Assembly (NCBI RefSeq): GCF_051486985.1
Contig: NZ_JAHVDV010000040.1
Span: forward strand, 2,241 to 38,537
From: Yokenella regensburgei
GTDB lineage: Bacteria; Pseudomonadota; Gammaproteobacteria; Enterobacterales; Enterobacteriaceae
DNA length: 36,297 nt
Direction: 5' to 3'
Shown: piece by piece, positions 2,678 to 31,397 of the stretch
How positions within the stretch are numbered: position 1 is the first letter of the stretch
Layout of the letters: each line of letters begins with the position of its first letter
Made by a program: the position numbers and the translations under genes
The notes under the pieces: model-generated
What the model saw: the letters and a program-made list of their open reading frames with translations, nothing else
Database searches by the model: none
What the model was told of the DNA's origin: nothing

Positions 2678-4279
2678 ATGACACAACAGGCAACGACAAC
2701 GGACGAACTGACGTTTATTAAACCTTCTGGCGAGCGGGAAGAGCATATTCTTACGCCCGGTGCGGTAGAGTTTTTGACTGAACTGGTTACGCGCTTTACG
2801 CCACAACGTAATAAACTGCTGGCGGCACGCATCCAGCAACAACAGGCTATTGACGAAGGGACGCTTCCTGATTTTATTTCGGAAACGGATTCCATTAGAA
2901 ATAGTGAATGGAAGATCCGTGGGATTCCGGCTGACCTCATGGATCGCCGCGTAGAGATCACCGGGCCGGTAGAGCGCAAGATGGTGATCAACGCGCTCAA
3001 CGCCAATGTGAAGGTCTTCATGGCGGATTTTGAAGATTCCCTCTCACCCGACTGGGACAAAGTTATTGAGGGACAGGTTAACCTGCGCGATGCAGTGAAC
3101 GGCACCATCAGTTACACCAACGATGCCGGGAAAATTTACCAACTTAAGCCCAATCCGGCGGTACTGATTTGCCGTGTGCGCGGTCTGCATCTGCCAGAAA
3201 AACATGTTACCTGGCGGGGTGAAGCCATTCCCGGTAGCCTGTTTGATTTCGCGCTCTACTTCTTCCACAACTATAAAGCGCTCCTGGCTAAAGGCAGCGG
3301 CCCCTATTTCTATCTGCCAAAAACCCAGGCCTGGCAGGAAGCCGCATGGTGGAGTGAGGTTTTCAGCTATAGCGAAGATCGCTTTAATCTGCCTCGCGGC
3401 ACCATCAAAGCCACCCTGTTGATTGAAACGCTGCCTGCGGTTTTCCAGATGGATGAGATCCTGCACGCGTTGCGCGACCATATTGTGGGGCTTAACTGTG
3501 GTCGCTGGGACTATATTTTCAGCTATATCAAGACACTGAAAAACCACCCGGACCGGGTGTTGCCTGACCGTCAGGTCGTTACTATGGACAAACCTTTCCT
3601 CAATGCCTATTCGCGTCTGTTGATCAAAACCTGCCACAAACGCGGCGCGTTTGCGATGGGCGGTATGGCGGCCTTCATTCCGAGTAAAGATACTGAGCGC
3701 AACAATCAGGTGCTGGAGAAAGTTAAAGCGGACAAAGCGCTGGAAGCCAACAATGGGCATGACGGAACCTGGATTGCGCACCCTGGTCTTGCCGACACGG
3801 CGATGGACGTCTTTAGCAAAGCGTTGGGTGAGAATCCTAATCAGCTCTCTGTCACCCGGGAAGAAGATGCACCTATTACCGCAGAACAACTGTTAGCGCC
3901 AGCTGACGGTGAACGAACTGAAAAGGGGATGCGCGCCAATATCCGCGTGGCGGTGCAGTACATCGAAGCCTGGATCTCCGGCAATGGGTGTGTGCCGATC
4001 TATGGTCTGATGGAGGACGCGGCCACGGCTGAAATCTCCCGCACCTCCATCTGGCAGTGGATCCACCACGAGAAAACACTCAGTAACGGTAAGCCTGTGA
4101 CCAAAGCCCTGTTCCGCCAGATGCTTGCTGAAGAGATGCGGGTCATTCAGGACGAGCTGGGGGAGCACCGCTTCAGCAGCGGTCGTTTCAACGATGCCGC
4201 GCGGTTGATGGAACAAATCACCACTTCTGATGAGCTGATTGATTTCCTGACCTTGCCGGGCTACCGCCTGCTCGCATAA
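2678..4279 (+). CDS. aceB: malate synthase A
   Basis: 533 aa starting MTQQATTTDELTFIKP, colinear with E. coli AceB (MTEQATTTDELAF..). The upstream in-frame extension from 2588 is rejected. Confidence 0.97.
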   Translation: MTQQATTTDELTFIKPSGEREEHILTPGAVEFLTELVTRFTPQRNKLLAARIQQQQAIDEGTLPDFISETDSIRNSEWKIRGIPADLMDRRVEITGPVERKMVINALNANVKVFMADFEDSLSPDWDKVIEGQVNLRDAVNGTISYTNDAGKIYQLKPNPAVLICRVRGLHLPEKHVTWRGEAIPGSLFDFALYFFHNYKALLAKGSGPYFYLPKTQAWQEAAWWSEVFSYSEDRFNLPRGTIKATLLIETLPAVFQMDEILHALRDHIVGLNCGRWDYIFSYIKTLKNHPDRVLPDRQVVTMDKPFLNAYSRLLIKTCHKRGAFAMGGMAAFIPSKDTERNNQVLEKVKADKALEANNGHDGTWIAHPGLADTAMDVFSKALGENPNQLSVTREEDAPITAEQLLAPADGERTEKGMRANIRVAVQYIEAWISGNGCVPIYGLMEDAATAEISRTSIWQWIHHEKTLSNGKPVTKALFRQMLAEEMRVIQDELGEHRFSSGRFNDAARLMEQITTSDELIDFLTLPGYRLLA

Positions 4280-5752: not shown

Positions 5753-6276
5753 TTTTCCCCTCACCCTAACCCTCTCCCCATTGGGGAGAGGGAACTGGCC
5801 GTGCTCGCCTTTTTTTGTGGGGATTCCCCAACCCTTAGGGAGAGAGGATGACAGGGTTGGGTGCTCAGGATTCGTGCCGTTTTTTTCTCCCTCTCCCCAT
5901 TGGGGAGCGGGAACTGGCCGTGCTCGCTTTTTTGGTGGGGATTTCCCAATCCGCAGGGAGAGAGGATGACAGGGGTGGGTGGTCAGGATTCGTGCCGTTT
6001 TTTTCTCCCTCTCCCCATTGGGGAGCGGGAACTGGCCGTGCTCGCTTTTTTGGTGGGGATTTCCCAACCCTCAGGGAGAGAGGATGACAGGGGTGGGTGG
6101 TCAGGATTCGTGCCGTTTTTTTTCTCCCTCTCCCCATTGGGGAGAGGGAACTGGCCGTGCTCGCCTTTTTTTGTGGGGATTCCCCAACCCTCAGGGAGAG
6201 AGGATGACAGGGTTGGGGGCTCAGGATTCGTGCCGTTTTTTTCTCCCTCGCCCCTCCGGGGAGAGGGCCGGGGTGA
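5751..6276. repeat. tandem array (about 4.5 copies, period 118-119 bp) of a palindromic hairpin plus U-tract unit filling the aceA-aceK spacer
   Basis: The motif cctctccccattggggag(a/c)gggaa recurs at 5761, 5880, 5998 and 6117. The array is bounded by cccctcaccctaaccctctcccc (5751) and its inverted partner ggggagagggccggggtgagggg (6249-6271). Each unit carries hairpins followed by T7-8 runs. Confidence 0.9.
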
Positions 6277-6285
6277 GGGGACGCT

Positions 6286-8007
6286 ATGTCGCGTGGGCTG
6301 GAACTACTGATTGCACAAACCATTCTGCAGGGCTTCGACGCCCAGTATGGTCGTTTTCTGGAGGTTACCTCCGGGGCGCAGCAGCGCTTTGAACAAGCCG
6401 ACTGGCATGCGGTACAGCAGGCGATGAAACAACGCATCCATCTCTACGATCACCATGTGGGGCTGGTGGTGGAACAACTGCGCTGTATTACTGATAACCC
6501 GCGCCCTGACCCCGATTTTCTCCTTCAGGTTAAAGCGCACTATACCCAGCTTCTTCCGGACTATCCGCGCTATGAAATCGCCGAGAGTTTTTTTAACTCC
6601 GTATATTGCCGCCTGTTCGATCACCATGCGCTGACGCCCGAGCGGCTATTCATATTCAGTTCTCAGCCAGAACGCCATTTTCGTGAGCATGCCCGTCCGC
6701 TGGCAAAAGATTTTTACCCTGAAGCTTGTTGGGAAACGCTGCTGACGCGGGTGCTCAGTGATTTACCATTACGCCTGCCCTGGCAGAACCTGACGCGGGA
6801 CGTGGGCTACATCATTGCCCATCTGGTGGAAACCTTCGGTGTTGAGGTGCTACGCAAGGCGCATCTGCATATCGCCAATGAACTCTTTTATCGTAATAAA
6901 GCGGCCTGGCTGGTAGGCAAACTGGTTACGCCTGCGGGGACGCTGCCTTTTTTGTTGCCGATTCACCGTAGCGATGATGGCGAGCTTTTTGTGGATACCT
7001 GTCTGACGGCCATCGCTGAAGCCAGCATCGTATTTGGCTTCGCCCGCTCCTACTTTATGGTTTATGCACCACAGCCTGCCGCGCTGGTGGAGTGGCTGCG
7101 GGAAATCCTGCCCGGCAAAACTACCGCCGAGTTGTATATGGCAATTGGCTGCCAGAAGCATGGCAAAACCGAAAGCTACCGTGAATATCTGAGCTACCTT
7201 GCGGGCAGTGATGAGCAGTTTATCGAAGCGCCGGGCATACGCGGCATGGTGATGCTGGTGTTCACTCTGCCGGGCTTTGATCGGGTGTTTAAAATCATTA
7301 AGGACCAGTTCCCGCCGCAAAAAGAGATGAGTGCCGCCCATGTACGTGCCTGCTATCAGCTTGTCAAAGAGCACGATCGCGTAGGGCGCATGGCGGACAC
7401 CCAGGAGTTCGAAAACTTCGTGCTGGAGAAACGCCGGATAGCACCAGAATTAATGGCATTGCTATTTAAAGAGGCATCACAAAAGATCACCGACCTCGGC
7501 GATCGCATTGTCATCAGCCATCTTTATATCGAGCGGCGGATGGTGCCGCTCAATCTGTGGTTTGAGCGGGTAAGCGGTCAGCAGCTGCGCGATGCCGTTG
7601 AGGAGTATGGTAACGCGATTCGCCAGCTTGCGGCCGCGAATATTTTTCCCGGCGATATGTTGTTTAAAAACTTCGGCGTCACCCGCCACGGGCGTGTGGT
7701 GTTCTACGACTATGACGAAATTTGCTACATGACCGAGGTGAATTTCCGGGATATTCCTCCGCCGCGCTACCCGGAAGACGAGATGAGTGCGGAACCCTGG
7801 TACAGCGTCGCGCCGGGAGATGTGTTCCCGGAGGAATTTCGCCACTGGCTCTGCGCAGACCCGCAAATCGGACCTTTATTTGAGGAGATGCATGCGGACC
7901 TGCTGCGGGCAGATTACTGGCGCGGGTTACAAACACGTATTAAAAACGGCCACGTGGAGGATGTTTACGCCTACCGCCGGCGCCAGCGGTTTTGTATTAG
8001 AAGGTAA
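6286..8007 (+). CDS. aceK: isocitrate dehydrogenase kinase/phosphatase
   Basis: 573 aa, [47 protein letters not shown].., near-identical to the E. coli AceK N-terminus. Confidence 0.97.
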
Positions 8008-8012
8008 AAGCA

Positions 8013-8037
8013 AAACGGCAACATTGTTGCCGTTTTT
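8013..8037 (+). terminator. aceK rho-independent terminator
   Basis: aaacggcaac-att-gttgccgttt followed by tt. Confidence 0.75.
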
Positions 8038-8170
8038 AGGGTTTGTACCTTCTCACTGTAACTGTTTTATTCACATTGCGCTGTGTTATCGCTGTAAAGC
8101 GTAATGTTACTGAGGCCTCCTCTCCCGGTGGGCTGAGGAATCCTCATAAAAAATGCGAGCACAGACGGTT

Positions 8171-8210
8171 CCCTCTCCTCTTAGGGGAGAGGGCCAGGAT
8201 AAGGGCATCA
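8171..8210. repeat. palindromic intergenic repeat (ccctctcctcttaggggagagggccaggataagggc) between convergent aceK and iclR
   Basis: Same motif family as the flanks of the aceA-aceK array and the arrays at 35347 and 35950. Confidence 0.7.
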
Positions 8211-8213
8211 GCC

Positions 8214-9041
8214 TTAGCGCATCCCGCCCCAGGCCAGCGTCACCTCTTTCGCCCCTTTGATCGCCATCGCCCCCAGCTCCGTCACCCGGTCATCCGTGAT
8301 GCGTGAAACCGGACCCGAAATAGAGATTGCCGCGAACGGCACGCCATGTTCATCATAAATACAGGCGGCAACGCAGCGCAGACCCAGTGCATGCTCTTCG
8401 TCATCAAAGGAGTAGCCGCGCTTGCGCGTCTGGGCAAGATCTTCTTTAAGATGTATCGGCGAGACCAGCGTCGCATGGGTATAAGCATGCAGCCCTTTAC
8501 GATGCAGCAAGCCCGTGACCTGCTCCTCGCTTAACTGAGACAGAAAAGCTTTCCCCGCCCCTGAAGCGTGCATCGGCAGCTTGCCGCCAATCGGTGCGGA
8601 CATACGCATAAGCTGGGTGCACTGCACCTGGTCGATAATAATGGCCTGATGATCGCTCTGGTCGAGTACCGCCAGGTTGACCGTTTCGCCGGAGTTCTCC
8701 ATCAGGGTGCGCAAAATCGGATGCACAATCGCCATCAGATTGCGGCTTTGCAGGAAGCTGCTGCCGACGATAAAGGCATGCGCCCCTACGGACCAGTGGC
8801 CCAGTTCGCCCACCTGACGCACAAACCCCAGTTGTTGCATGGTGGTCAGTAAGCGGTGGGTGGTGGAGTTGGGCAAGCCAGCCTGCTGTGCCAGTTCGGT
8901 TAACGCCACGCTGCCGTGGGATTCAGCAATGGACTCCAGCAGCTTAAGCCCGCGCGTTAACGACTGGACCTGACCTGTGGGTTGCGTGGCAGCGGCAGTA
9001 GCGGGTTTTCTGCCGCGTTTAGCGGGTACATTGGCAACCAT
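8214..9041 (-). CDS. iclR: glyoxylate-bypass transcriptional repressor IclR
   Basis: 275 aa, MVANVPAKRGRKPATAAATQPTGQVQSLTRGLKLLE.., colinear with E. coli IclR. Confidence 0.97.
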   Translation of the reverse strand: MVANVPAKRGRKPATAAATQPTGQVQSLTRGLKLLESIAESHGSVALTELAQQAGLPNSTTHRLLTTMQQLGFVRQVGELGHWSVGAHAFIVGSSFLQSRNLMAIVHPILRTLMENSGETVNLAVLDQSDHQAIIIDQVQCTQLMRMSAPIGGKLPMHASGAGKAFLSQLSEEQVTGLLHRKGLHAYTHATLVSPIHLKEDLAQTRKRGYSFDDEEHALGLRCVAACIYDEHGVPFAAISISGPVSRITDDRVTELGAMAIKGAKEVTLAWGGMR

Positions 9042-22244: not shown

Positions 22245-23825
22245 TCATGTGCCGGTGTGGATGCTTTCCCAGCTCAGCCCGAAACGGGCCAGATATTTGC
22301 GCAGACGGTCGGCATCGTTAGGATTGGCTTTCTTCAGCCGTGAGACGGCAAACAGCTCGCGGCCTGCCCCGGAGAGAGAGGTACTGCGGCGGCACACCTC
22401 CAGCACCGTTTCGAGCTGGCGCTGGTCAAAGAGATCAATCTCTTCATTGAGCGGCGTGGGGGCAGGTATGCTGCGCCAGTTCTGTTGTAAGCGTGTAATC
22501 TCCTCTTCAGCGCCGGCCAGGGTGATACGACCTTGCTCCGCAAGCGTTGCCATACGGGCAATGGACGAACTCAGCTCGCGGAAGTTGCCGCGCCACTGCG
22601 CCTGAGCGGAACAGGCAAAGGCCAGATAGCGCTCACGGGCTTCTTTGTCGAAGCGGATCTGCGTTTGCGCTTCTGCCGAGAAGCGTTGCAGTTCAAATTC
22701 GATATTGGGGGCGATGTCTTCCCGCCGCTCGGCAAGCCCAGGCAGGGCGAAGGTCCACATATTGATACGTGCGTAGAGATCCTCGCGAAACCGTCCTTCC
22801 ATCACCCACTGGTGCATATCCCGGTGGGTTCCGGCGATAAGCTGAAAATCGCTGTGGACCTCTTTATCTGATCCGAAGGGAAAAAAGGTTTTTTCCTCAA
22901 TGGCTTTTAGCAGCATCGCCTGTTCGTCCAGCCCCAGTTCGGCAATTTCATCCAGAAAGAGTACCCCTCCATCCGCCTCGCGCAGTAACCCCTGGCGTGA
23001 TGAGAGCGCCCCGGTAAAAGCGCCTTTCACGTGGCCAAACAGCGTGGACATGGCGTTATCGCCACGCAACGTGGCGCAGTTGACCGCCACCAGTCTGCCC
23101 GCCACCCGGTGCCGAGCCTGACGCAGCTGAAAAATACGTTTCGCCAGGAAGGATTTCCCGGCACCTGTCGGGCCGGTAAGCAGAATCGGGGCCGTGGAGC
23201 GTAAGGCGACACGTTCGATCTGTTCTATAAGCGTATTAAAGGTTGCGTTGCGGGTATCGATACCCGCTTTCAGCAGAGACACCGCGTGCTGCTGCTCGCG
23301 CTGAAAGCGGCTGGTTAAGGTGGCGTAGCGGCTCAAATCCAGGTCGATGACAGAATGTACCCCCGCCGCAACATCTTCTTCTGAGGAGCCTTTGGGTGCC
23401 GGACCGGTTTGCAGAAGGCTGGCGGGCAGATAGCGGGCCTCCGTCAGTAAAAACCAGCAAATCTGTGCCACGTGCGTGCCGGTGGTGATATGCACCAAGT
23501 ACTCTTCGTTGTCGGTATCAAAGTCATAGTGGGTCGCAAAATCGAGAAACGCAGCGTAGACCTCTTCAAAGTCCCAGGGGTCCTGGATCGTCACGCTGTG
23601 CGGACGCACCTCCGTCCCGGGGGAGAGAAGGGCAATATCTTCCGCCAGTTGTTGTGCCATACCGATGTCGCGTGGCTGATGGAGCAGTTCCAGCCGATCG
23701 ACTGGCAAATCCGGCTGCTGACACAACCCGACCGTTGGCCGCCATTTGCGCAGGCGGTTGGCCCGTTTTCCCCGCTTGTCGAGTACCGTACCAAGAACAC
23801 CAATCACTACCCTGCGTTTCTTCAT
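22245..23825 (-). CDS. rtcR: sigma-54-dependent transcriptional activator RtcR (N-terminal CARF domain, AAA+ domain, HTH)
   Basis: 526 aa from MKKRRVVIGVLGTVLDKRGKRANRLRKWRPTVGLCQQ.., colinear with E. coli RtcR including GPTGAGKSFLA and GAFTGA..GLLR motifs. The 20-aa N-terminal extension in the track ORF is rejected. Confidence 0.9.
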   Translation of the reverse strand: MKKRRVVIGVLGTVLDKRGKRANRLRKWRPTVGLCQQPDLPVDRLELLHQPRDIGMAQQLAEDIALLSPGTEVRPHSVTIQDPWDFEEVYAAFLDFATHYDFDTDNEEYLVHITTGTHVAQICWFLLTEARYLPASLLQTGPAPKGSSEEDVAAGVHSVIDLDLSRYATLTSRFQREQQHAVSLLKAGIDTRNATFNTLIEQIERVALRSTAPILLTGPTGAGKSFLAKRIFQLRQARHRVAGRLVAVNCATLRGDNAMSTLFGHVKGAFTGALSSRQGLLREADGGVLFLDEIAELGLDEQAMLLKAIEEKTFFPFGSDKEVHSDFQLIAGTHRDMHQWVMEGRFREDLYARINMWTFALPGLAERREDIAPNIEFELQRFSAEAQTQIRFDKEARERYLAFACSAQAQWRGNFRELSSSIARMATLAEQGRITLAGAEEEITRLQQNWRSIPAPTPLNEEIDLFDQRQLETVLEVCRRSTSLSGAGRELFAVSRLKKANPNDADRLRKYLARFGLSWESIHTGT

Positions 23826-23920
23826 GTTTATCCTGCAAGATAAATTCCGATAACTTAGTATAAAAATACAGCTAAGTGAACACAAGTTAGTTAAAAGCGA
23901 TTGTCATAAAATTACTTATT

Positions 23921-23934
23921 TATCAATAGCTTAA
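23921..23934. promoter_or_regulatory. IHF-like site (tATCAAtagcTTA) between rtcR and the sigma-54 promoter
   Basis: Matches WATCAANNNNTTR. Placement is typical of the IHF-bent DNA upstream of sigma-54 promoters. Confidence 0.35.
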
Positions 23935-23960
23935 ATAAATTATTTTCTTTTTTATCTTTC

Positions 23961-23976
23961 TGGCACGCTTCTGGCA
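23961..23976 (+). promoter_or_regulatory. sigma-54 (-24/-12) promoter driving the SPFH-rtcB-NTase operon
   Basis: TGGCACgcttcTGGCA against the consensus TGGCAC-N5-TTGCA (one mismatch). Divergent from rtcR, as for the E. coli rtcBA promoter. Confidence 0.75.
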
Positions 23977-23987
23977 ATAGCTAATAC

Positions 23988-24270
23988 GTCACGATGCTGA
24001 GCACGCAGGGGGTAAGGCCCCGCCAGCGCACCCGGAACGGTAAGACGTTATCCGCGGGGCGTTCTGTCAGCACCGGGACACATTAAGGGTTCGATTCCCG
24101 ACTCACCCTTCCAGGTGAACACTGGTTGTATTGGTTAATGCGCTGTCAGGTTGGTAACGACAGCAACACACCGGCGCCGATAAGGGTTCCGGGTCGCAGG
24201 CAAAACAGGCTGGCAGGAGTGGCCTGTTCCCCTCCGGCTCCGCACCTGCATCCGTGCCGGTACGTGAAAA
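23988..24270 (+). ncRNA. non-coding, GC-rich leader RNA with tRNA-like motifs (candidate Y-RNA-like / tRNA-mimic RNA) upstream of the SPFH-rtcB operon
   Basis: No ORF on this strand for about 300 nt after the sigma-54 promoter. Canonical tRNA T-arm consensus GGGTTCGATTCCC at 24087-24099. The 3' segment ctcaccc (24103-24109), followed by ttcca, can pair 6/7 with gggtaag (24010-24016) as an acceptor-like stem. A second taagggttcc module sits at 24181. I found no full canonical cloverleaf. Confidence 0.5.
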
Positions 24271-24284
24271 GATAAGGATGAAAA

Positions 24285-25403
24285 ATGAATAAGAAAATCA
24301 CTATTCGTAAAGGACAGTTGGCTCTGCTGGCAAAAGCAGGCGATTACACCCACATTTTTGAGGCAGGAGAGCACCGTCTCCCCAGGTTTGGTAAGCAGGA
24401 GGTCACCTTCGTTGATCTCAATGGCGGGGATGTGGAGAGAGAACTTGCTCACTATCTGCGCCGTTTCCGGCCGGAATGGGTCGACGCCTACTGCCTGACC
24501 GCTGATACCACCGAGCATAACGTTGCTGCGCTGTACCGTAATGACATCCTCGTGGAAATCATACCTCCCGCTTCGCGTCGGATGTTCTGGCAGGACGGCA
24601 GCCTGAGCATTGCATTGCTGGATACTAAGGATGCGCGCGTGCCTGAGCGCATCATGAATGCCGTACTGCAACCACGTACTGCCATTAAGGGACGGGAAGC
24701 CATCCAGACCGTCAACGTCGGAGCATGGCATGTCGGCGTCCTGAAAATTGATGGTGTTACACAGCCGCTGTTGCCACCGGGCATCACCGCCTACTGGCAG
24801 GTGAACCATCTGATTGAGGCGGATGTTGTCGACACGCGTTTGCAGGTGATGGAGGTCACGGGGCAGGAGATCCTGACCAAAGACAAAGTGAATTTGCGCA
24901 TCAACCTGGGCGCAAACTGGCACTACAGTGACGTCTTACGGGCGTTCAGTCAGCTTAGTAAACCGCTGGAGCATCTCTATCGCGAGTTACAGTTTGCTCT
25001 GCGTGAAGCGGTAGGGACCCGTACACTTGATGAACTCCTGGAAGACAAGCAGGTGATCGACAGCGTGGTGAGCGCCCAGGTTAAAACGCGCATGACGCCC
25101 TTTGGCATGGATATCGCCTCGCTGGGGGTGAAGGACATCGTACTGCCAGGCGACATGAAAACTATCCTGGCAAAACTGGTGGAGGCGGAAAAATCAGCAC
25201 AGGCGAATGTGATTCGTCGACGTGAAGAGACAGCGGCGACCCGATCATTACTGAACACCGCAAAAGTGATGGAAAGCAACCCGGTGGCACTGCGCTTAAA
25301 AGAGCTGGAAACCCTGGAAAGAGTGGCGGAGCGTATCGATAAGATCTCCGTCTTCGGTGGCCTGGATAATGTACTGAATGGACTGGTGAATATTAAAGGA
25401 TAA
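24285..25403 (+). CDS. SPFH/band-7 (stomatin/prohibitin-like) domain protein with a ~180-aa non-membrane N-terminal domain of unknown function
   Basis: 372 aa. The C-terminal half (QVMEVTGQEILTKDKVNLRINLGANWHYSDV..TRTLDELLEDKQVIDSVV..PFGMDIASLGVKDIVLPGDMKTILAKLVEAEKSAQANVIRRREETAA) has the SPFH signature. No N-terminal TM helix. AAGGA RBS. Confidence 0.8.
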   Translation: MNKKITIRKGQLALLAKAGDYTHIFEAGEHRLPRFGKQEVTFVDLNGGDVERELAHYLRRFRPEWVDAYCLTADTTEHNVAALYRNDILVEIIPPASRRMFWQDGSLSIALLDTKDARVPERIMNAVLQPRTAIKGREAIQTVNVGAWHVGVLKIDGVTQPLLPPGITAYWQVNHLIEADVVDTRLQVMEVTGQEILTKDKVNLRINLGANWHYSDVLRAFSQLSKPLEHLYRELQFALREAVGTRTLDELLEDKQVIDSVVSAQVKTRMTPFGMDIASLGVKDIVLPGDMKTILAKLVEAEKSAQANVIRRREETAATRSLLNTAKVMESNPVALRLKELETLERVAERIDKISVFGGLDNVLNGLVNIKG

Positions 25404-25407
25404 CCTC

Positions 25408-26634
25408 ATGCAGCATAACGAATTTCAACTGTTAACGGCGCAAAACAGCGCGCCAATAAAAATGTGGACCCACGGAGTTCCGGTCGAGCCTGAGGCGCGT
25501 GCGCAGTTGCAGAACACGGCGAAGATGCCGTTTATTTTTCAGCATCTGGCGGTGATGCCGGATGTGCATCTGGGTAAAGGCTCCACCATCGGCAGCGTGA
25601 TCCCAACCAAAGGGGCCATCATTCCGGCGGCGGTCGGCGTGGATATAGGTTGTGGCATGATCGCTGTACGTACTTCGCTTATGGCAAGCGACCTGCCCGA
25701 TAACCTGAGTGGACTGCGCAGCGCCATTGAGCAGGCGGTGCCGCACGGGCGAACCAGTACCCGCTCCGGGCGTGATAAAGGGGCCTGGGAAACGCCCCCG
25801 CAGGAAGTGGATAACCACTGGTCGCTGCTGTCAGCGCGCTTTAAGCGCCTGACGGATAGCTATCCGCAGTTACTGAAAACCAATAATTATCAGCACCTGG
25901 GTACGCTCGGGACGGGCAACCACTTTATAGAGATCTGCCTGGACGAGCAGCAGCGCGTGTGGGTGATGCTACATAGCGGATCCCGCGGCGTGGGTAACGC
26001 CATCGGTACGCTGTTTATTGCGCTGGCGCAGCAGGATATGCAGCAGCATATTGCCAACCTGCCGGATAAAAACCTGGCCTATTTCCAGGAGGGGAGTAAG
26101 CACTACGACGATTACATGGAGGCGGTCTCATGGGCGCAGGATTTTGCCCGTCATAACCGGGAAGTGATGATGGCGCGCGTGCTGGCGGCGCTGTCACGCA
26201 TCGTGACGAAGCCGTTCATGACGCAGCAGGAAGCGGTGAATTGCCACCATAACTATGTCCAAAAAGAGCGCCATTTTGGTGAAGAGGTGCTGGTGACGCG
26301 CAAAGGGGCGGTCTCCGCGCAAAAAGGCCAGATGGGGATTATTCCCGGTTCGATGGGGGCCAAAAGTTTTATCGTGCGGGGACTGGGGAACGAAGAGAGT
26401 TTCTGCTCCTGTAGTCATGGCGCAGGGCGTGCGATGAGCCGTACGGCTGCGAAAAAGCGCTTCACCGTTGATGACCAGATTCGCGCTACCGCGCATGTTG
26501 AATGTCGTAAAGACAGCGACGTCATTGATGAAATTCCGATGGCCTACAAGGATATCGATGCGGTCATGGCGGCACAGGCGTCGCTGGTGGAAATCGTTCA
26601 CACCCTGCGTCAGGTGGTGTGTGTAAAAGGATAA
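25408..26634 (+). CDS. rtcB: RNA-splicing ligase RtcB (3'-phosphate/5'-hydroxyl RNA ligase)
   Basis: 408 aa, colinear with E. coli RtcB from about residue 10 (MWT.GVPVE..AKMPFIF.H.AVMPDVHLGKGSTIGSVIPTKGAIIPAAVGVDIGCGM.., C-terminal ..IDEIPMAYKDIDAVMAAQ..LRQVVCVKG). 4-nt gap after the SPFH gene. AAAGGA RBS. Confidence 0.95.
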   Translation: MQHNEFQLLTAQNSAPIKMWTHGVPVEPEARAQLQNTAKMPFIFQHLAVMPDVHLGKGSTIGSVIPTKGAIIPAAVGVDIGCGMIAVRTSLMASDLPDNLSGLRSAIEQAVPHGRTSTRSGRDKGAWETPPQEVDNHWSLLSARFKRLTDSYPQLLKTNNYQHLGTLGTGNHFIEICLDEQQRVWVMLHSGSRGVGNAIGTLFIALAQQDMQQHIANLPDKNLAYFQEGSKHYDDYMEAVSWAQDFARHNREVMMARVLAALSRIVTKPFMTQQEAVNCHHNYVQKERHFGEEVLVTRKGAVSAQKGQMGIIPGSMGAKSFIVRGLGNEESFCSCSHGAGRAMSRTAAKKRFTVDDQIRATAHVECRKDSDVIDEIPMAYKDIDAVMAAQASLVEIVHTLRQVVCVKG

Positions 26635-26638
26635 AAAA

Positions 26639-27424
26639 ATGACGGTCAATGGTGTGGATGCTGGCATGCGCGAACGCGTGCGGCAGCATTTGAAGAGGGT
26701 TGAGCAGGACTATGGTGTTCGGGTGCTCTACGCCTGCGAGTCCGGCAGTCGGGGGTGGGGCTTTGCCTCACCGGATAGTGACTATGACGTGCGATTTTTA
26801 TACGTGCATCCACCGGAATGGTACTTACAAGTGGAGACACCACGTGACGTTATCGAACTGCCGATCAATGATGAGCTGGACGTGAGCGGTTGGGAGTGGC
26901 GCAAAGCGCTGGGCTTGCTAAAAAGCGCCAACCCGACACTGATTGAGTGGCTGGATTCGCCTGTCGTTTACCAACGGGAGGAGGCGGTGATAGCGGCGCT
27001 CAGCGCGCAGGTGCCGAAATGGTTTTCTCCCGTGCGGGCGCGCTGGCACTACTACTCTATGGCCCGCAGAAACTTTCACAGCTATTTGCAGGGCGATGAG
27101 GTGCGGTTGAAGAAGTATTTCTATGTGCTGCGTCCGTTACTGGCCGTGCGTTGGGTGGAAGCAGGAAAAGGCGTTCCTCCTATGCGCTTTGCCGAACTGC
27201 TGGCAGGCAGTGAACTGGAGGCGGAGCTGCGTCTGGAGATAAAGGAACTGCTGGCGCGTAAGCAGCGTGCCGGAGAAGCGCAGTATGGTGCACCTTTGCC
27301 ACGCTTGCATGCGTTTATCGCCGCGGAGATCGACAGGGGCACGCTTCCTCCCGTGTTACCAGATAGTCGGGATGGAGAGGTGAAAGCGCTTGATCGGTTG
27401 TTGTATCAAACGGTGATGGCATAA
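26639..27424 (+). CDS. polymerase-beta superfamily nucleotidyltransferase (261 aa), at the position where rtcA follows rtcB in E. coli
   Basis: NTase motif GSRGWGFASPDSDYDVRF (hG[GS]-x9-13-D.D). 4-nt gap after the rtcB stop. AAAGGA RBS. Confidence 0.75.
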   Translation: MTVNGVDAGMRERVRQHLKRVEQDYGVRVLYACESGSRGWGFASPDSDYDVRFLYVHPPEWYLQVETPRDVIELPINDELDVSGWEWRKALGLLKSANPTLIEWLDSPVVYQREEAVIAALSAQVPKWFSPVRARWHYYSMARRNFHSYLQGDEVRLKKYFYVLRPLLAVRWVEAGKGVPPMRFAELLAGSELEAELRLEIKELLARKQRAGEAQYGAPLPRLHAFIAAEIDRGTLPPVLPDSRDGEVKALDRLLYQTVMA

Positions 27425-28834: not shown

Positions 28835-29090
28835 TCGATTATTCAGCCATGGCACAAGGGAAGAGCGAAAGGGGTAGGCGCAGCAAACTACGATTACACC
28901 CAGAAGTGCTCCACCACTTGTGAAACGCCCGACTGCGAACGTTTCTGGTGACAACTCAGGGGATTCAGCCCCTGTAGCCGATGGTGATTGCTGCCGTGCA
29001 ATCCACCACCTCGGCGGTGCTCCCCCTCACGTATCGTCTCCGGATGGGCTCCTCGAATACGGTTACCTGGGCAACGCTCCTCTTCTGGCT
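28835..29090 (-). ncRNA. lysine riboswitch (lysC leader, L-box)
   Basis: The minus-strand leader matches the E. coli lysC leader as I recall it: ..gccagaagaggagcgttgccc.. at the 5' end, ..catcggctacaggggctgaatcccctgagttgtcacc.. centrally, and ..ctcttcccttgtgccatggctgaa..cccctgacacgagg before the ATG. Confidence 0.85.
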
Positions 29091-29392
29091 ATTACCTTCG
29101 CCTTTCACACTCTCTGTAGCGAGAAATGCTCTGGTAATACACAAACTCGCCTGTAGGCGGGTAGCGCATATAGAAATAAAGGCTCGCGGCATCCCTGTCA
29201 ATGTTGTGATTATGCGGATTTTTCATGCAGAGGAATCGATTAGAAAAAGGGCTTATGTTGGGCTAATTTATTGCTTTATTTCGCCCGTTTTGCCGCGGCG
29301 TCCGGGAGTGGAAAACAAAAACCATCACAATTTTTGTTCGCAGGCGCTACAATCGACCGCAGTCACAATTCTCAAATCAGAAGAGTATTGCT

Positions 29393-31039: not shown

Positions 31040-31085
31040 TTTTTTTTGCATCCTTAGCGATGCGCCGGATATGCTATAAAAAAAT

Positions 31086-31109
31086 GCCGACATTGCGTCG
31101 GCTTTTTTT
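31086..31109 (+). terminator. pgi rho-independent terminator
   Basis: gccgac-attgc-gtcggc followed by ttttttt. Confidence 0.8.
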
Positions 31110-31397
31110 ATCGGATAAATCTTCTTCCCACTATTAATACCTAATTCCGCGCTCTGAGGTTATTCTGAAAAGCAAGAATAACCGTTTAATGTCCAGGCGT
31201 TATTTTCAGATGTTACCTATACTTCCCAACTGGGTGAGTAATTTTAACAATATGAAATATAAAGGTTTTAAATTAAATATATAATTTTTATATATCTCTT
31301 TTATCCAATTTTCTTAAAACTTCCCGCTACGTTTCCCATTCGATTAATAGCCTGCTTTAGTTGTGTATACTCGTACTCGCCTGATTATTTCAGGCAC

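Follow-up and report, generated by a model that had tools for sequence, protein, structure and literature searches.

A conserved multi-domain leader RNA, probably a reduced b7a-tRNA variant, in the RtcR-associated slipin–rtcB–rlaP operon of Yokenella regensburgei

The stretch of Yokenella regensburgei DNA analysed here (36,297 nucleotides (nt) of contig NZ_JAHVDV010000040.1, hereafter the window) contains an RNA-repair locus in which a segment of about 300 nt, at 23988–24284, separates two divergent transcription units. On the minus strand lies rtcR (22245–23825), encoding a sigma-54 activator with an RtcR/CARF N-terminal domain (Pfam RtcR, 3.7e-80, and Sigma54_activat); it matches the NCBIfam RtcR equivalog at 820 bits against a cut-off of 650, and its mechanically called open reading frame (ORF) reaches 23885, the likely ATG being at 23825–23823. 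On the plus strand, the segment is followed by a slipin/SPFH (Band-7) gene (24285–25403; Pfam Band_7, 1e-21; PDB stomatin, 3.7e-21), the gene for the RtcB RNA ligase (25408–26634; Pfam RtcB, 1.1e-132) and that for RlaP (PF10127), a Pol-beta-family nucleotidyltransferase (26639–27424; Pfam, 8.6e-95), the biochemistry of which is the subject of a preprint (PMC12776372). Downstream of rlaP lie lysC and its lysine riboswitch. According to our analysis, the segment 23988–24284 is very probably the non-coding 5′ leader of an RtcR- and sigma-54-controlled slipin (SPFH)–rtcB–rlaP operon, and a conserved multi-domain RNA that includes a reduced variant of the predicted tRNA-like class known as b7a-tRNA.

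An earlier note on this DNA had described the segment as a candidate tRNA mimic resembling Y RNA. What stands of this description is that a non-coding, tRNA-derived element is present in an RtcR/RtcB operon without Rsr (no Rsr/TROVE gene was found among the large ORFs of the window, as the note had said), while the structure that it drew for the element was wrong.

A sigma-54-type promoter of the form TGGCACGcttcTGGCA, with GG at −24 and GC at −12, can be read off the plus strand at 23961–23976, where the sequence is TGGCACGCTTCTGGCA. The earlier note had placed such a promoter upstream of the leader, and 79 of 80 related loci keep the same type of promoter ahead of their SPFH gene. Transcription from it would begin at about 23987, and 23988–24284 is therefore the operon leader. 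The leader ends in a Shine-Dalgarno (SD) sequence, AAGGA, and the ATG of the SPFH gene (24274–24287), which lie in an A-rich stretch that is unpaired in all consensus folds; no terminator-like site was found between the leader and the SPFH gene. The claim that no ORF lies between the promoter and the SPFH gene was borne out in that none is conserved among 22 homologous leaders, although mechanically called ORFs do exist, such as that at 24126–24275 (49 amino acids (aa), TTG start). The longest plus-strand ORFs of the 22 leaders range from 0 to 70 aa and differ in position, and the indels in the leader have lengths that are not divisible by three.

The AT-rich spacer between rtcR and the promoter (23826–23960) carries repeated words of the type A(A/G)(C/T)T(A/T)AGT, such as aacttagt, agctaagt and aagttagtt, which may be candidate RtcR or IHF sites. 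This spacer also has AAATACAG in common with the Escherichia coli locus.

Related loci were collected by a scan with the SPFH protein, taking one genome per species, in Enterobacteriaceae, Erwiniaceae, Pectobacteriaceae, Hafniaceae, Morganellaceae, Pseudomonas, Burkholderia, Azonexus/Dechloromonas, Thiobacillus and Neisseria. This gave 80 loci, and the addition of one E. coli locus brought the set to 81 (single loci are designated below by L numbers). The gene rtcR is adjacent and divergent in about 77 of the 81. The downstream genes are less constant: rtcB is absent from many loci of Citrobacter, Klebsiella, Superficieibacter, Lonsdalea, Brenneria, Hafnia, Mangrovibacter and E. coli, in which rlaP follows the SPFH gene directly, and Proteus as well as several further loci lack rlaP. 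RtcR, the sigma-54 promoter, the leader and the SPFH gene form the near-invariant set, and the linkage of the leader is thus tight to RtcR and SPFH rather than to RtcB or RlaP. In E. coli, a homologous leader with its sigma-54 promoter (about 72% identity to window positions 23948–24130) was found in 1505 of 5426 complete genomes (about 28%). The gene order there is leader, slipin, rlaP and a zeta-toxin-family gene, located between yjbD and lysC (L001, EC974, 5802–8254). The leader carries no annotation, and neither rtcR nor rtcB is adjacent; its promoter is presumably served in trans by the RtcR of the rtcBA locus.

The 5′ part of the leader forms a domain (23988–24079) in which a closing stem, GCUGA at 23996–24000 with UCAGC at 24067–24071, surrounds two hairpins. 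The first, P1 (GC.GGGG/CCCC.GC, 24005–24023), shows compensatory changes in six of six pairs, with 95.8% of cells paired across 80 distinct sequences. The second, P2 (24024–24066), is a long irregular hairpin with the conserved strands GCCGGYGC and GUUCCGUC at its base; 15 of its 16 pairs have compensatory changes, and 92–95% of cells are paired. Taken together, 21 of 22 pairs of P1 and P2 vary in a compensatory manner in a MAFFT alignment of 40 sequences that represent every lineage. Among leaders of the type found in the window (the core type, defined below), the closing stem is 96.7% paired and has two covarying pairs. An outer stem (GUC at 23988–90 with GAC at 24077–79) is tentative: only 35% of it is paired in the MAFFT register, and by eye it shifts register among genera (GCGU/ACGC, UGCC/GGCA, GUUAU/AUAAC). 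The GCCGGYGC strand lies 60–75 nt downstream of the promoter in nearly all lineages where it was located.

A covariance model of this domain, termed R1, was built on the 40-sequence alignment and searched against both strands of 82 sources (764 kb). Exactly one match was obtained in 81 of the 82 sources, each on the plus strand between the promoter and the T arm, at 34.6–97 bits (78.2 bits in the window, E 3e-17). In the R1 alignment, which is favoured in being fitted to the model and with which the MAFFT-only result agrees, 94.2% of cells are paired, as compared with 73% in shuffles and 38–50% in slid controls, and 399 cells are compensatory, as compared with 101 in shuffles, none of 500 shuffles reaching 399. 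The conserved structure across homologous loci that the earlier note had proposed to look for is therefore present, with strong covariation. Nor is the leader only a long untranslated region (UTR) with RtcR enhancer sites, the outcome that the note had named as counting against its proposal, because it covaries and because such sites would sit upstream of the promoter.

In Erwinia rhapontici (L036:3622–3680), the 5′ end of the leader contains a tandem duplication of about 20 nt (CCCCGTCAACATGACAGTTACCCCGTCAACATG) directly after the promoter.

Downstream of the 5′ domain, the sequence GGGTTCGATTCCC at 24087–24099 is a perfect tRNA T-arm consensus, as the earlier note had recognized; the relaxed motif GGTTCGANTCC has this one match in the window, against 0.02 expected from shuffles. 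It folds into the T hairpin GGG-UUCGAUU-CCC, which is invariant in 18–19 core-type homologues and which we regard as the T-arm remnant of an ancestral tRNA-like (b7a-tRNA) module. In 77 of the 81 loci, which belong to two proteobacterial classes, a T motif occupies the same relative position on the same strand, downstream of the promoter and ahead of the SPFH gene. Among 103 T motifs, the loop UUCGANU hardly varies, and the third pair of the stem is formed in 100% (72 GC and 30 AU). The stem has 5 base pairs (bp) in 93–96% of non-core cases and 3–4 bp in the core type, where 52% form the fourth pair and 5% the fifth.

Searches with known RNA models recovered little beyond this hairpin. ARAGORN predicted zero tRNA or transfer-messenger RNA (tmRNA) genes in the window, and no Rfam family matched the leader at its gathering score. 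In a permissive Rfam search, only the 13-nt T hairpin was matched, by the T arm of tmRNA models, at 9.0 and 7.2 bits (gathering scores 84 and 47). The YrlA and tRNA covariance models, the test that had been proposed for the mimic, gave no leader match at E ≤ 10 in searches of 501 nt and 76 nt. Among the related loci, sub-threshold YrlA matches (26–37 bits; best 36.6 against a gathering score of 69) were confined to the tandem tRNA-like region of non-enteric loci, and none was obtained in the three enterobacterial loci searched in E-value mode. The Ro-binding motif GNCGAAG has no match within 23988–24284, and by eye the leader lacks CGAA altogether, which excludes the GNCGAANG form of this motif as well. 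The leader of the window thus has no acceptor, D or anticodon arm and no canonical tRNA cloverleaf, and with only 13 nt matched and no ARAGORN call it is not a tmRNA. It does not resemble a riboswitch, T-box or attenuator either: no Rfam family matches it, no terminator-like site follows it, and the SD sequence is unpaired in the consensus folds. A ligand-binding role of the 5′ domain is conceivable. Elsewhere in the window, Rfam places the 3′ end of the 23S rRNA and the 5S rRNA at 1–818, the lysine riboswitch upstream of lysC at 28896–29092 (89.6 bits) and the small RNA STnc430 at 31073–31226 (55.1 bits).

The region following the T hairpin is also structured. A hairpin termed PH (UCACC-CUUCCA-GGUGA, 24103–24118) forms in 19 of 20 core-type leaders with differing stems, among them UCACC/GGUGA, AUUCAUU/AAUGAAU, UUCACU/AGUGAA and UUUCAU/AUGAAA. 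After it comes an unpaired motif, ACUGGUUGU (24121–24129), near-invariant in core-type leaders and in the Superficieibacter leader L007; judged by its sequence, it may resemble a D loop (A-N-U-G-G-U-U), and a search by eye for partners of it found nothing conserved. The GC hairpin gctgtc/gacagc of the earlier note was confirmed as H5 (GCUGUC/GACAGC, 24142–24164), with its strands at 24142–24147 and 24159–24164; it is formed in all 20 core-type leaders with differing stems, and by eye a hairpin occupies the same place in long-type and non-enteric loci too. Since PH and H5 are mis-registered by MAFFT, each homologue was folded singly for these two hairpins rather than pair-counted. The 3′ domain (24172–24259) is a long interrupted helix with conserved GCCGRUAA, AGGCAAAA and UUCCCCU elements and an inner hairpin (24206–24226) that is lineage-specific. 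RNAalifold gave 21 pairs for this domain, 14 of them with compensatory changes, and its covariance model, R2, scored 89.3 bits in the window and matched about 50 Enterobacterales loci. Long-range pairing between the 5′ and 3′ parts, as in the terminal stem of Y RNA, was seen neither in the consensus folds nor by eye. The structure described here is based on comparative data and not on the single-sequence minimum free energy (MFE) fold, which pairs the T hairpin otherwise than the conserved structure does. Overall, the leader is a conserved multi-domain structured non-coding RNA, the most constant neighbours of which are RtcR, the sigma-54 promoter and SPFH.

The comparison of homologous loci reveals the origin of the T hairpin. 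In Pseudomonas and Betaproteobacteria, the place of the T motif holds one or two abutting tRNA-like genes, detected by ARAGORN and by the Rfam tRNA model at 40–68 bits: two cloverleaves in Pseudomonas, and in Betaproteobacteria a cloverleaf together with a mini module that consists of an acceptor stem, a D-loop remnant and a T arm, sometimes followed by NCC or NCCA. The anticodons assigned by ARAGORN vary (Arg, Leu, Met, Asn, Ser, Pro); some genes are called tRNA-Arg (acg), and others are reported as “tRNA-???” because the anticodon loop is not 7 nt long. None of the non-enteric tRNA-like genes encodes CCA. The anticodon-arm loops in Pseudomonas and its relatives have 4–7 nt, many Pseudomonas copies having 4–6 nt, and several are UUCG tetraloops. 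In the loci L053–L081 (at about 3560–3760), the D and T arms were seen to be near-constant, while the anticodon arm differs even among close relatives.

Among the Enterobacterales, a single mini module (5-bp acceptor stem, D-loop remnant and T arm) is found in Franconibacter, Siccibacter, Kosakonia, Mangrovibacter, Enterobacillus, Erwinia, Lonsdalea, Brenneria, Hafnia, Proteus, Morganella and Xenorhabdus; an example is GCGAA-AAGUCGGUUUUA-UCAGGUUCGAAUCCUGA-A-UUCGC-CACC. By eye, its acceptor-like stem varies by genus (GCGAA/UUCGC, GCAAA/UUUGC, GCGAU/AUCGC, GGUG/CACC, UCGGA/UCCGA). The core type, with the T hairpin only, comprises Yokenella (the window), Phytobacter, Escherichia, Citrobacter, Klebsiella and Enterobacter. 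Neither the window nor any of the Enterobacterales has an anticodon arm. By its position, the T hairpin of the window is homologous to the T arm that the tRNA-like genes of orthologous operons carry, and comparison of the sequences points to a stepwise reduction of the tRNA-like module from cloverleaves through the mini module to the T hairpin. Since the anticodon arm is first variable and then absent, and the D and acceptor stems are lost next while the T loop is kept, this series suggests that selection acts on the T loop or elbow and not on decoding or anticodon-loop cutting.

The Superficieibacter locus L007 is an intermediate, in which parts of the mini-tRNA and the downstream motif of the core type occur together. 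The 3′ strand of its acceptor stem, UUCGC, can pair either with the upstream GCGAA or with a downstream GGUGAA, and these alternatives suggest that PH arose from the old acceptor strand. The order of elements in the core type is T hairpin, closed hairpin PH and the GG-containing ACUGGUUGU; the D-loop-like element lies upstream of the T arm in mini modules (...GGUU(A)) and downstream of it in the core type (UGGUU). This arrangement is compatible with a circularly permuted elbow, a topology that receives no support from covariance models.

In two of the 81 loci, those of Azovibrio and Azonexus (L059:5629–5841 and L077:5160–5372), a second conserved non-coding element of about 215 nt was observed in the interval that separates the SPFH gene from rtcB. 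Its 7-bp acceptor-like stem, GGGCACG/CGUGUCC (G3.U70), its T arm (GCGGGUUCGAGUCCCGC) and its encoded ACCA end enclose an insertion of about 170 nt in a tmRNA-like architecture; neither ARAGORN nor Rfam called the element.

The SPFH protein encoded next to the leader appears to be soluble, in that no transmembrane segment was seen on reading its sequence by eye rather than with a predictor. Its sequence matches a Y. regensburgei protein with 100% identity. Its AlphaFold model is poor (mean predicted local distance difference test score, pLDDT, 55.7), the underlying alignment being shallow (19 sequences of at least 74% identity), and is confident only at residues 1–115. These residues (24285–24630) form an N-terminal beta-rich domain with pLDDT 73–91 and no Pfam match. 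Foldseek matched the protein to stomatin, HflK/C, prohibitin, erlin and major vault protein cages with low TM-scores (0.26–0.32), which confirm SPFH family membership only. Every matched SPFH relative with a solved structure, the vault included, is a ring or cage oligomer. The Foldseek alignments to the major vault protein are longer (400–490 columns) than those to stomatin, which perhaps reflects, as far as the model can be read, an N-terminal beta-rich domain aligning to vault repeats.

Based on these results, we propose that RtcR would activate the sigma-54 promoter and that the leader RNA would be made as the first part of the operon transcript. The leader would then be the RNA that partners the SPFH protein of the operon, itself probably assembled into a soluble ring or cage. 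Binding of this protein may fall to the flanking domains of the leader, and the invariant T loop could resemble a tRNA elbow, on which RNA-repair factors or enzymes that recognise tRNA would dock or make tertiary contacts. A role as the RNA partner of an SPFH assembly is put forward tentatively, as a possibility that we would not yet call probable. A bolder form of it, in which the entire leader of about 300 nt is a widely conserved, undescribed RNA subunit of a soluble vault-like SPFH ribonucleoprotein in RtcR-controlled RNA repair, its tRNA module having been re-wired and not just lost in Enterobacteriaceae, seems unlikely to us; if true, the re-wired tRNA module would represent convergent or parallel evolution of a Y-RNA-like architecture without Ro60. 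As for identity and mechanism taken together, this is the best explanation we can offer, and we lean towards it, if only slightly.

Several observations weigh against this interpretation. The tRNA-like character of the window leader is down to 13 nt with a 3-bp stem, and the T hairpin might be an evolutionary leftover or a T-loop motif that makes contacts only within its own molecule. Three loci, two of Providencia and one of Xenorhabdus (L045, L047 and L075), keep the leader, with its promoter and 5′ domain (R1 at 48.9–81.3 bits), without a T motif; some lineages can thus do without the T arm. The R2 model matches no Pseudomonas or Betaproteobacteria locus, where similar motifs were seen by eye only, and the MFE of the whole leader is ordinary for its composition (z = −1.44). 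No RNA-binding domain or fold was identified in the SPFH protein, the model of which is poor outside the N-terminal domain. Finally, what the computations show is the promoter motif, the conserved structure, the homology series and the gene linkage; transcription from the promoter, any processing, SPFH binding and the role of the T loop are inferred for Yokenella and its enterobacterial homologues.

One of the other explanations is that the T-arm match arose by chance in an ordinary intergenic spacer. A 13-nt match is possible somewhere in a genome, and the unremarkable MFE z-score of the leader would fit a spacer; however, chance would give only 0.02 such matches per window, 77 of 81 loci have the motif in the same position, and its flanks covary strongly, so that we consider the probability of this negligible. 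The model of the earlier note, a YrlA-type tRNA mimic of about 100 nt, can also be judged directly. It combined the T arm with an acceptor stem (gggtaag at 24010–16 with ctcaccc at 24102–08), a “near-CCA tail” ttcca and a second module at 24181–24197. The T-arm consensus is indeed perfect, six of the seven acceptor positions can pair in the window, and 70% of cells pair across homologues. Nevertheless, a central mismatch is fixed in 18 of 18 homologues, and covariation is absent (0.087 as compared with 0.095 in shuffled alignments, 411 of 500 shuffles reaching the observed value). The pairing was rejected, its 5′ strand lying in P1, which is supported by covariation, and its 3′ strand in PH, of which ttcca is the loop. 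The second module (taagggttcc, 24181–24190) is not T-arm-like, as GGGTTCC is unconserved (homologues have AGATGCC, GGCGCC and others) and the stretch makes up one strand of the 3′-domain helix. With no YrlA or tRNA model match, no ARAGORN call, no GNCGAAG in the leader and no Rsr gene, this model is very improbable. A third explanation, that of a sentinel, decoy or feedback RNA, holds that a tRNA-derived module is cut by tRNA-damaging nucleases and thereby protects tRNAs, feeds the CARF domain of RtcR or becomes a substrate of RtcB/RlaP; a substrate or a source of RtcR ligands had also been suggested in the earlier note. It draws on the reported response of RtcR to tRNA fragments (PMC7790460), on the constant linkage of the leader to RtcR and its promoter, and on the great differences among anticodon-arm loops of closely related Pseudomonas. 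However, many of these Pseudomonas copies have loops of 4–6 nt, UUCG tetraloops included, and not 7-nt anticodon loops, and there is no anticodon arm to cut in the window or in any of the Enterobacterales; because nothing anticodon-arm-like remains, a role as decoy or RtcR ligand is less likely in the lineage of the window. Sigma-54 promoters give little basal transcript, and little RNA would therefore be present to act as a sentinel; moreover, the RtcR system of E. coli K-12 reportedly functions without such a leader. In Salmonella, YrlA is not cut by a damage-induced nuclease (PMC7790460). On balance, we find this explanation improbable.

The main rival is that the leader would be a purely cis-acting 5′ UTR, whose structure controls the stability, processing or translation of the slipin–rtcB–rlaP mRNA, for example by shielding the 5′ end from RNase E with a stem or by offering a platform for processing, with the T hairpin as a relic or internal motif and no trans-acting RNA product. 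No terminator-like site separates the leader from the SPFH gene, the predicted 5′ end coincides with the start of the structured 5′ domain, the core type has no acceptor stem to direct RNase P cleavage, and three loci lack the T motif entirely, all of which would fit this explanation. On the other hand, the SD sequence and start codon are unpaired in an A-rich stretch with no conserved alternative pairing, and about 270 nt of covarying structure, found from Enterobacterales to Betaproteobacteria, exceeds the usual need of a stabiliser. The near-complete tRNA-like genes of homologous loci would be expected to be excised, and PA4581.1, the tRNA-like gene at the Pseudomonas aeruginosa locus, was detected at tRNA-like levels without induction of rtc (PMC13637947). 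We therefore consider an exclusively cis-acting role doubtful and prefer the reading of the leader as a reduced b7a-tRNA variant within a larger RNA that may partner the SPFH protein.

RtcB/RtcR operons are widespread, and our analysis indicates that the leader beside the SPFH gene is a large covarying RNA and more than a tRNA look-alike, in which the anticodon arm and then the D arm and acceptor stem are dispensable and the T loop is kept nearly everywhere. As the leader occurs with slipin and rlaP in about 28% of the complete genomes of E. coli, this species provides a tractable genetic system in which the RNA can be tested. Annotation pipelines miss the element in Enterobacterales or call it a real tRNA in Pseudomonas (PA4581.1), and a covariance model of the family would correct both.

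The closest known relative is the b7a-tRNA, which was predicted by Burroughs and Aravind (2016, as summarized in bioRxiv 10.1101/312249) as a non-coding RNA strongly resembling tRNA beside a Band-7 protein and RtcB. According to the same summary, it is occasionally swapped with YrlA next to Rsr, is seen as a possible functional counterpart of the tRNA-like Y RNA YrlA, and was unvalidated as of 2018 (bioRxiv 10.1101/312249). Rfam has no b7a-tRNA family, the literature on RlaP, slipin/RtcR and PA4582 yielded no description of the enterobacterial leader, and for experimental validation of the class we found only the detection of PA4581.1 by quantitative reverse-transcription PCR (qRT-PCR). As in the summarized prediction, the element of the window stands beside a Band-7/SPFH gene in an RtcB locus without Rsr, and its T hairpin occupies the position of the tRNA-like genes, with the same 5′ domain upstream and a hairpin downstream. 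The strong likeness to tRNA given in that summary, that is, a cloverleaf, is found in the Pseudomonas and betaproteobacterial homologues; the window, in contrast, has only a 3-bp T hairpin that tRNA finders and models do not detect. The conserved 5′ and 3′ flanking domains of the leader go unmentioned in the summary (bioRxiv 10.1101/312249). As far as the class is described there, the element is a strongly reduced form of the predicted b7a-tRNA, one that could not be recognised before, inside a conserved multi-domain leader RNA. The P. aeruginosa gene PA4581.1 (“tRNA-Arg4”), which has no encoded CCA and an unusual D loop and was detected by qRT-PCR (PMC13637947), lies between rtcR (PA4581) and PA4582–PA4585, just as the element of the window lies between rtcR and the Band-7 gene; unlike the window, which has no such gene, it forms a full cloverleaf and is annotated as a tRNA.

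YrlA (Rfam RF02553), encoded in the Salmonella rsr–yrlBA–rtcBA operon, is likewise a tRNA-derived non-coding RNA in an RtcR-controlled rtcB operon. Its order of T stem-loop, closed “acceptor” stem-loop and D stem-loop (PMC4201824) can be compared with the T hairpin, PH (19 of 20 homologues) and GG-containing D-loop-like ACUGGUUGU of the window, where a D stem is absent. The leader differs from YrlA in lacking a match to the YrlA model, an Rsr gene and GNCGAAG, and its partner gene encodes an SPFH protein and not Ro60. The mini modules, with an acceptor stem, a D-loop analogue, a T arm and no anticodon arm, share the reduced layout of the tRNA-like domain of tmRNA; the element of the window differs from tmRNA in having no mRNA-like part, pseudoknots, 3′ CCA end or acceptor stem. 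Purely by analogy, the proposed pairing of the leader with an SPFH assembly would recall the vault, in which the major vault protein, with its SPFH-like shoulder domain, is associated with vault RNA, and the complex of Ro60 with Y RNA, both of which combine a cage or ring protein with a small structured RNA.

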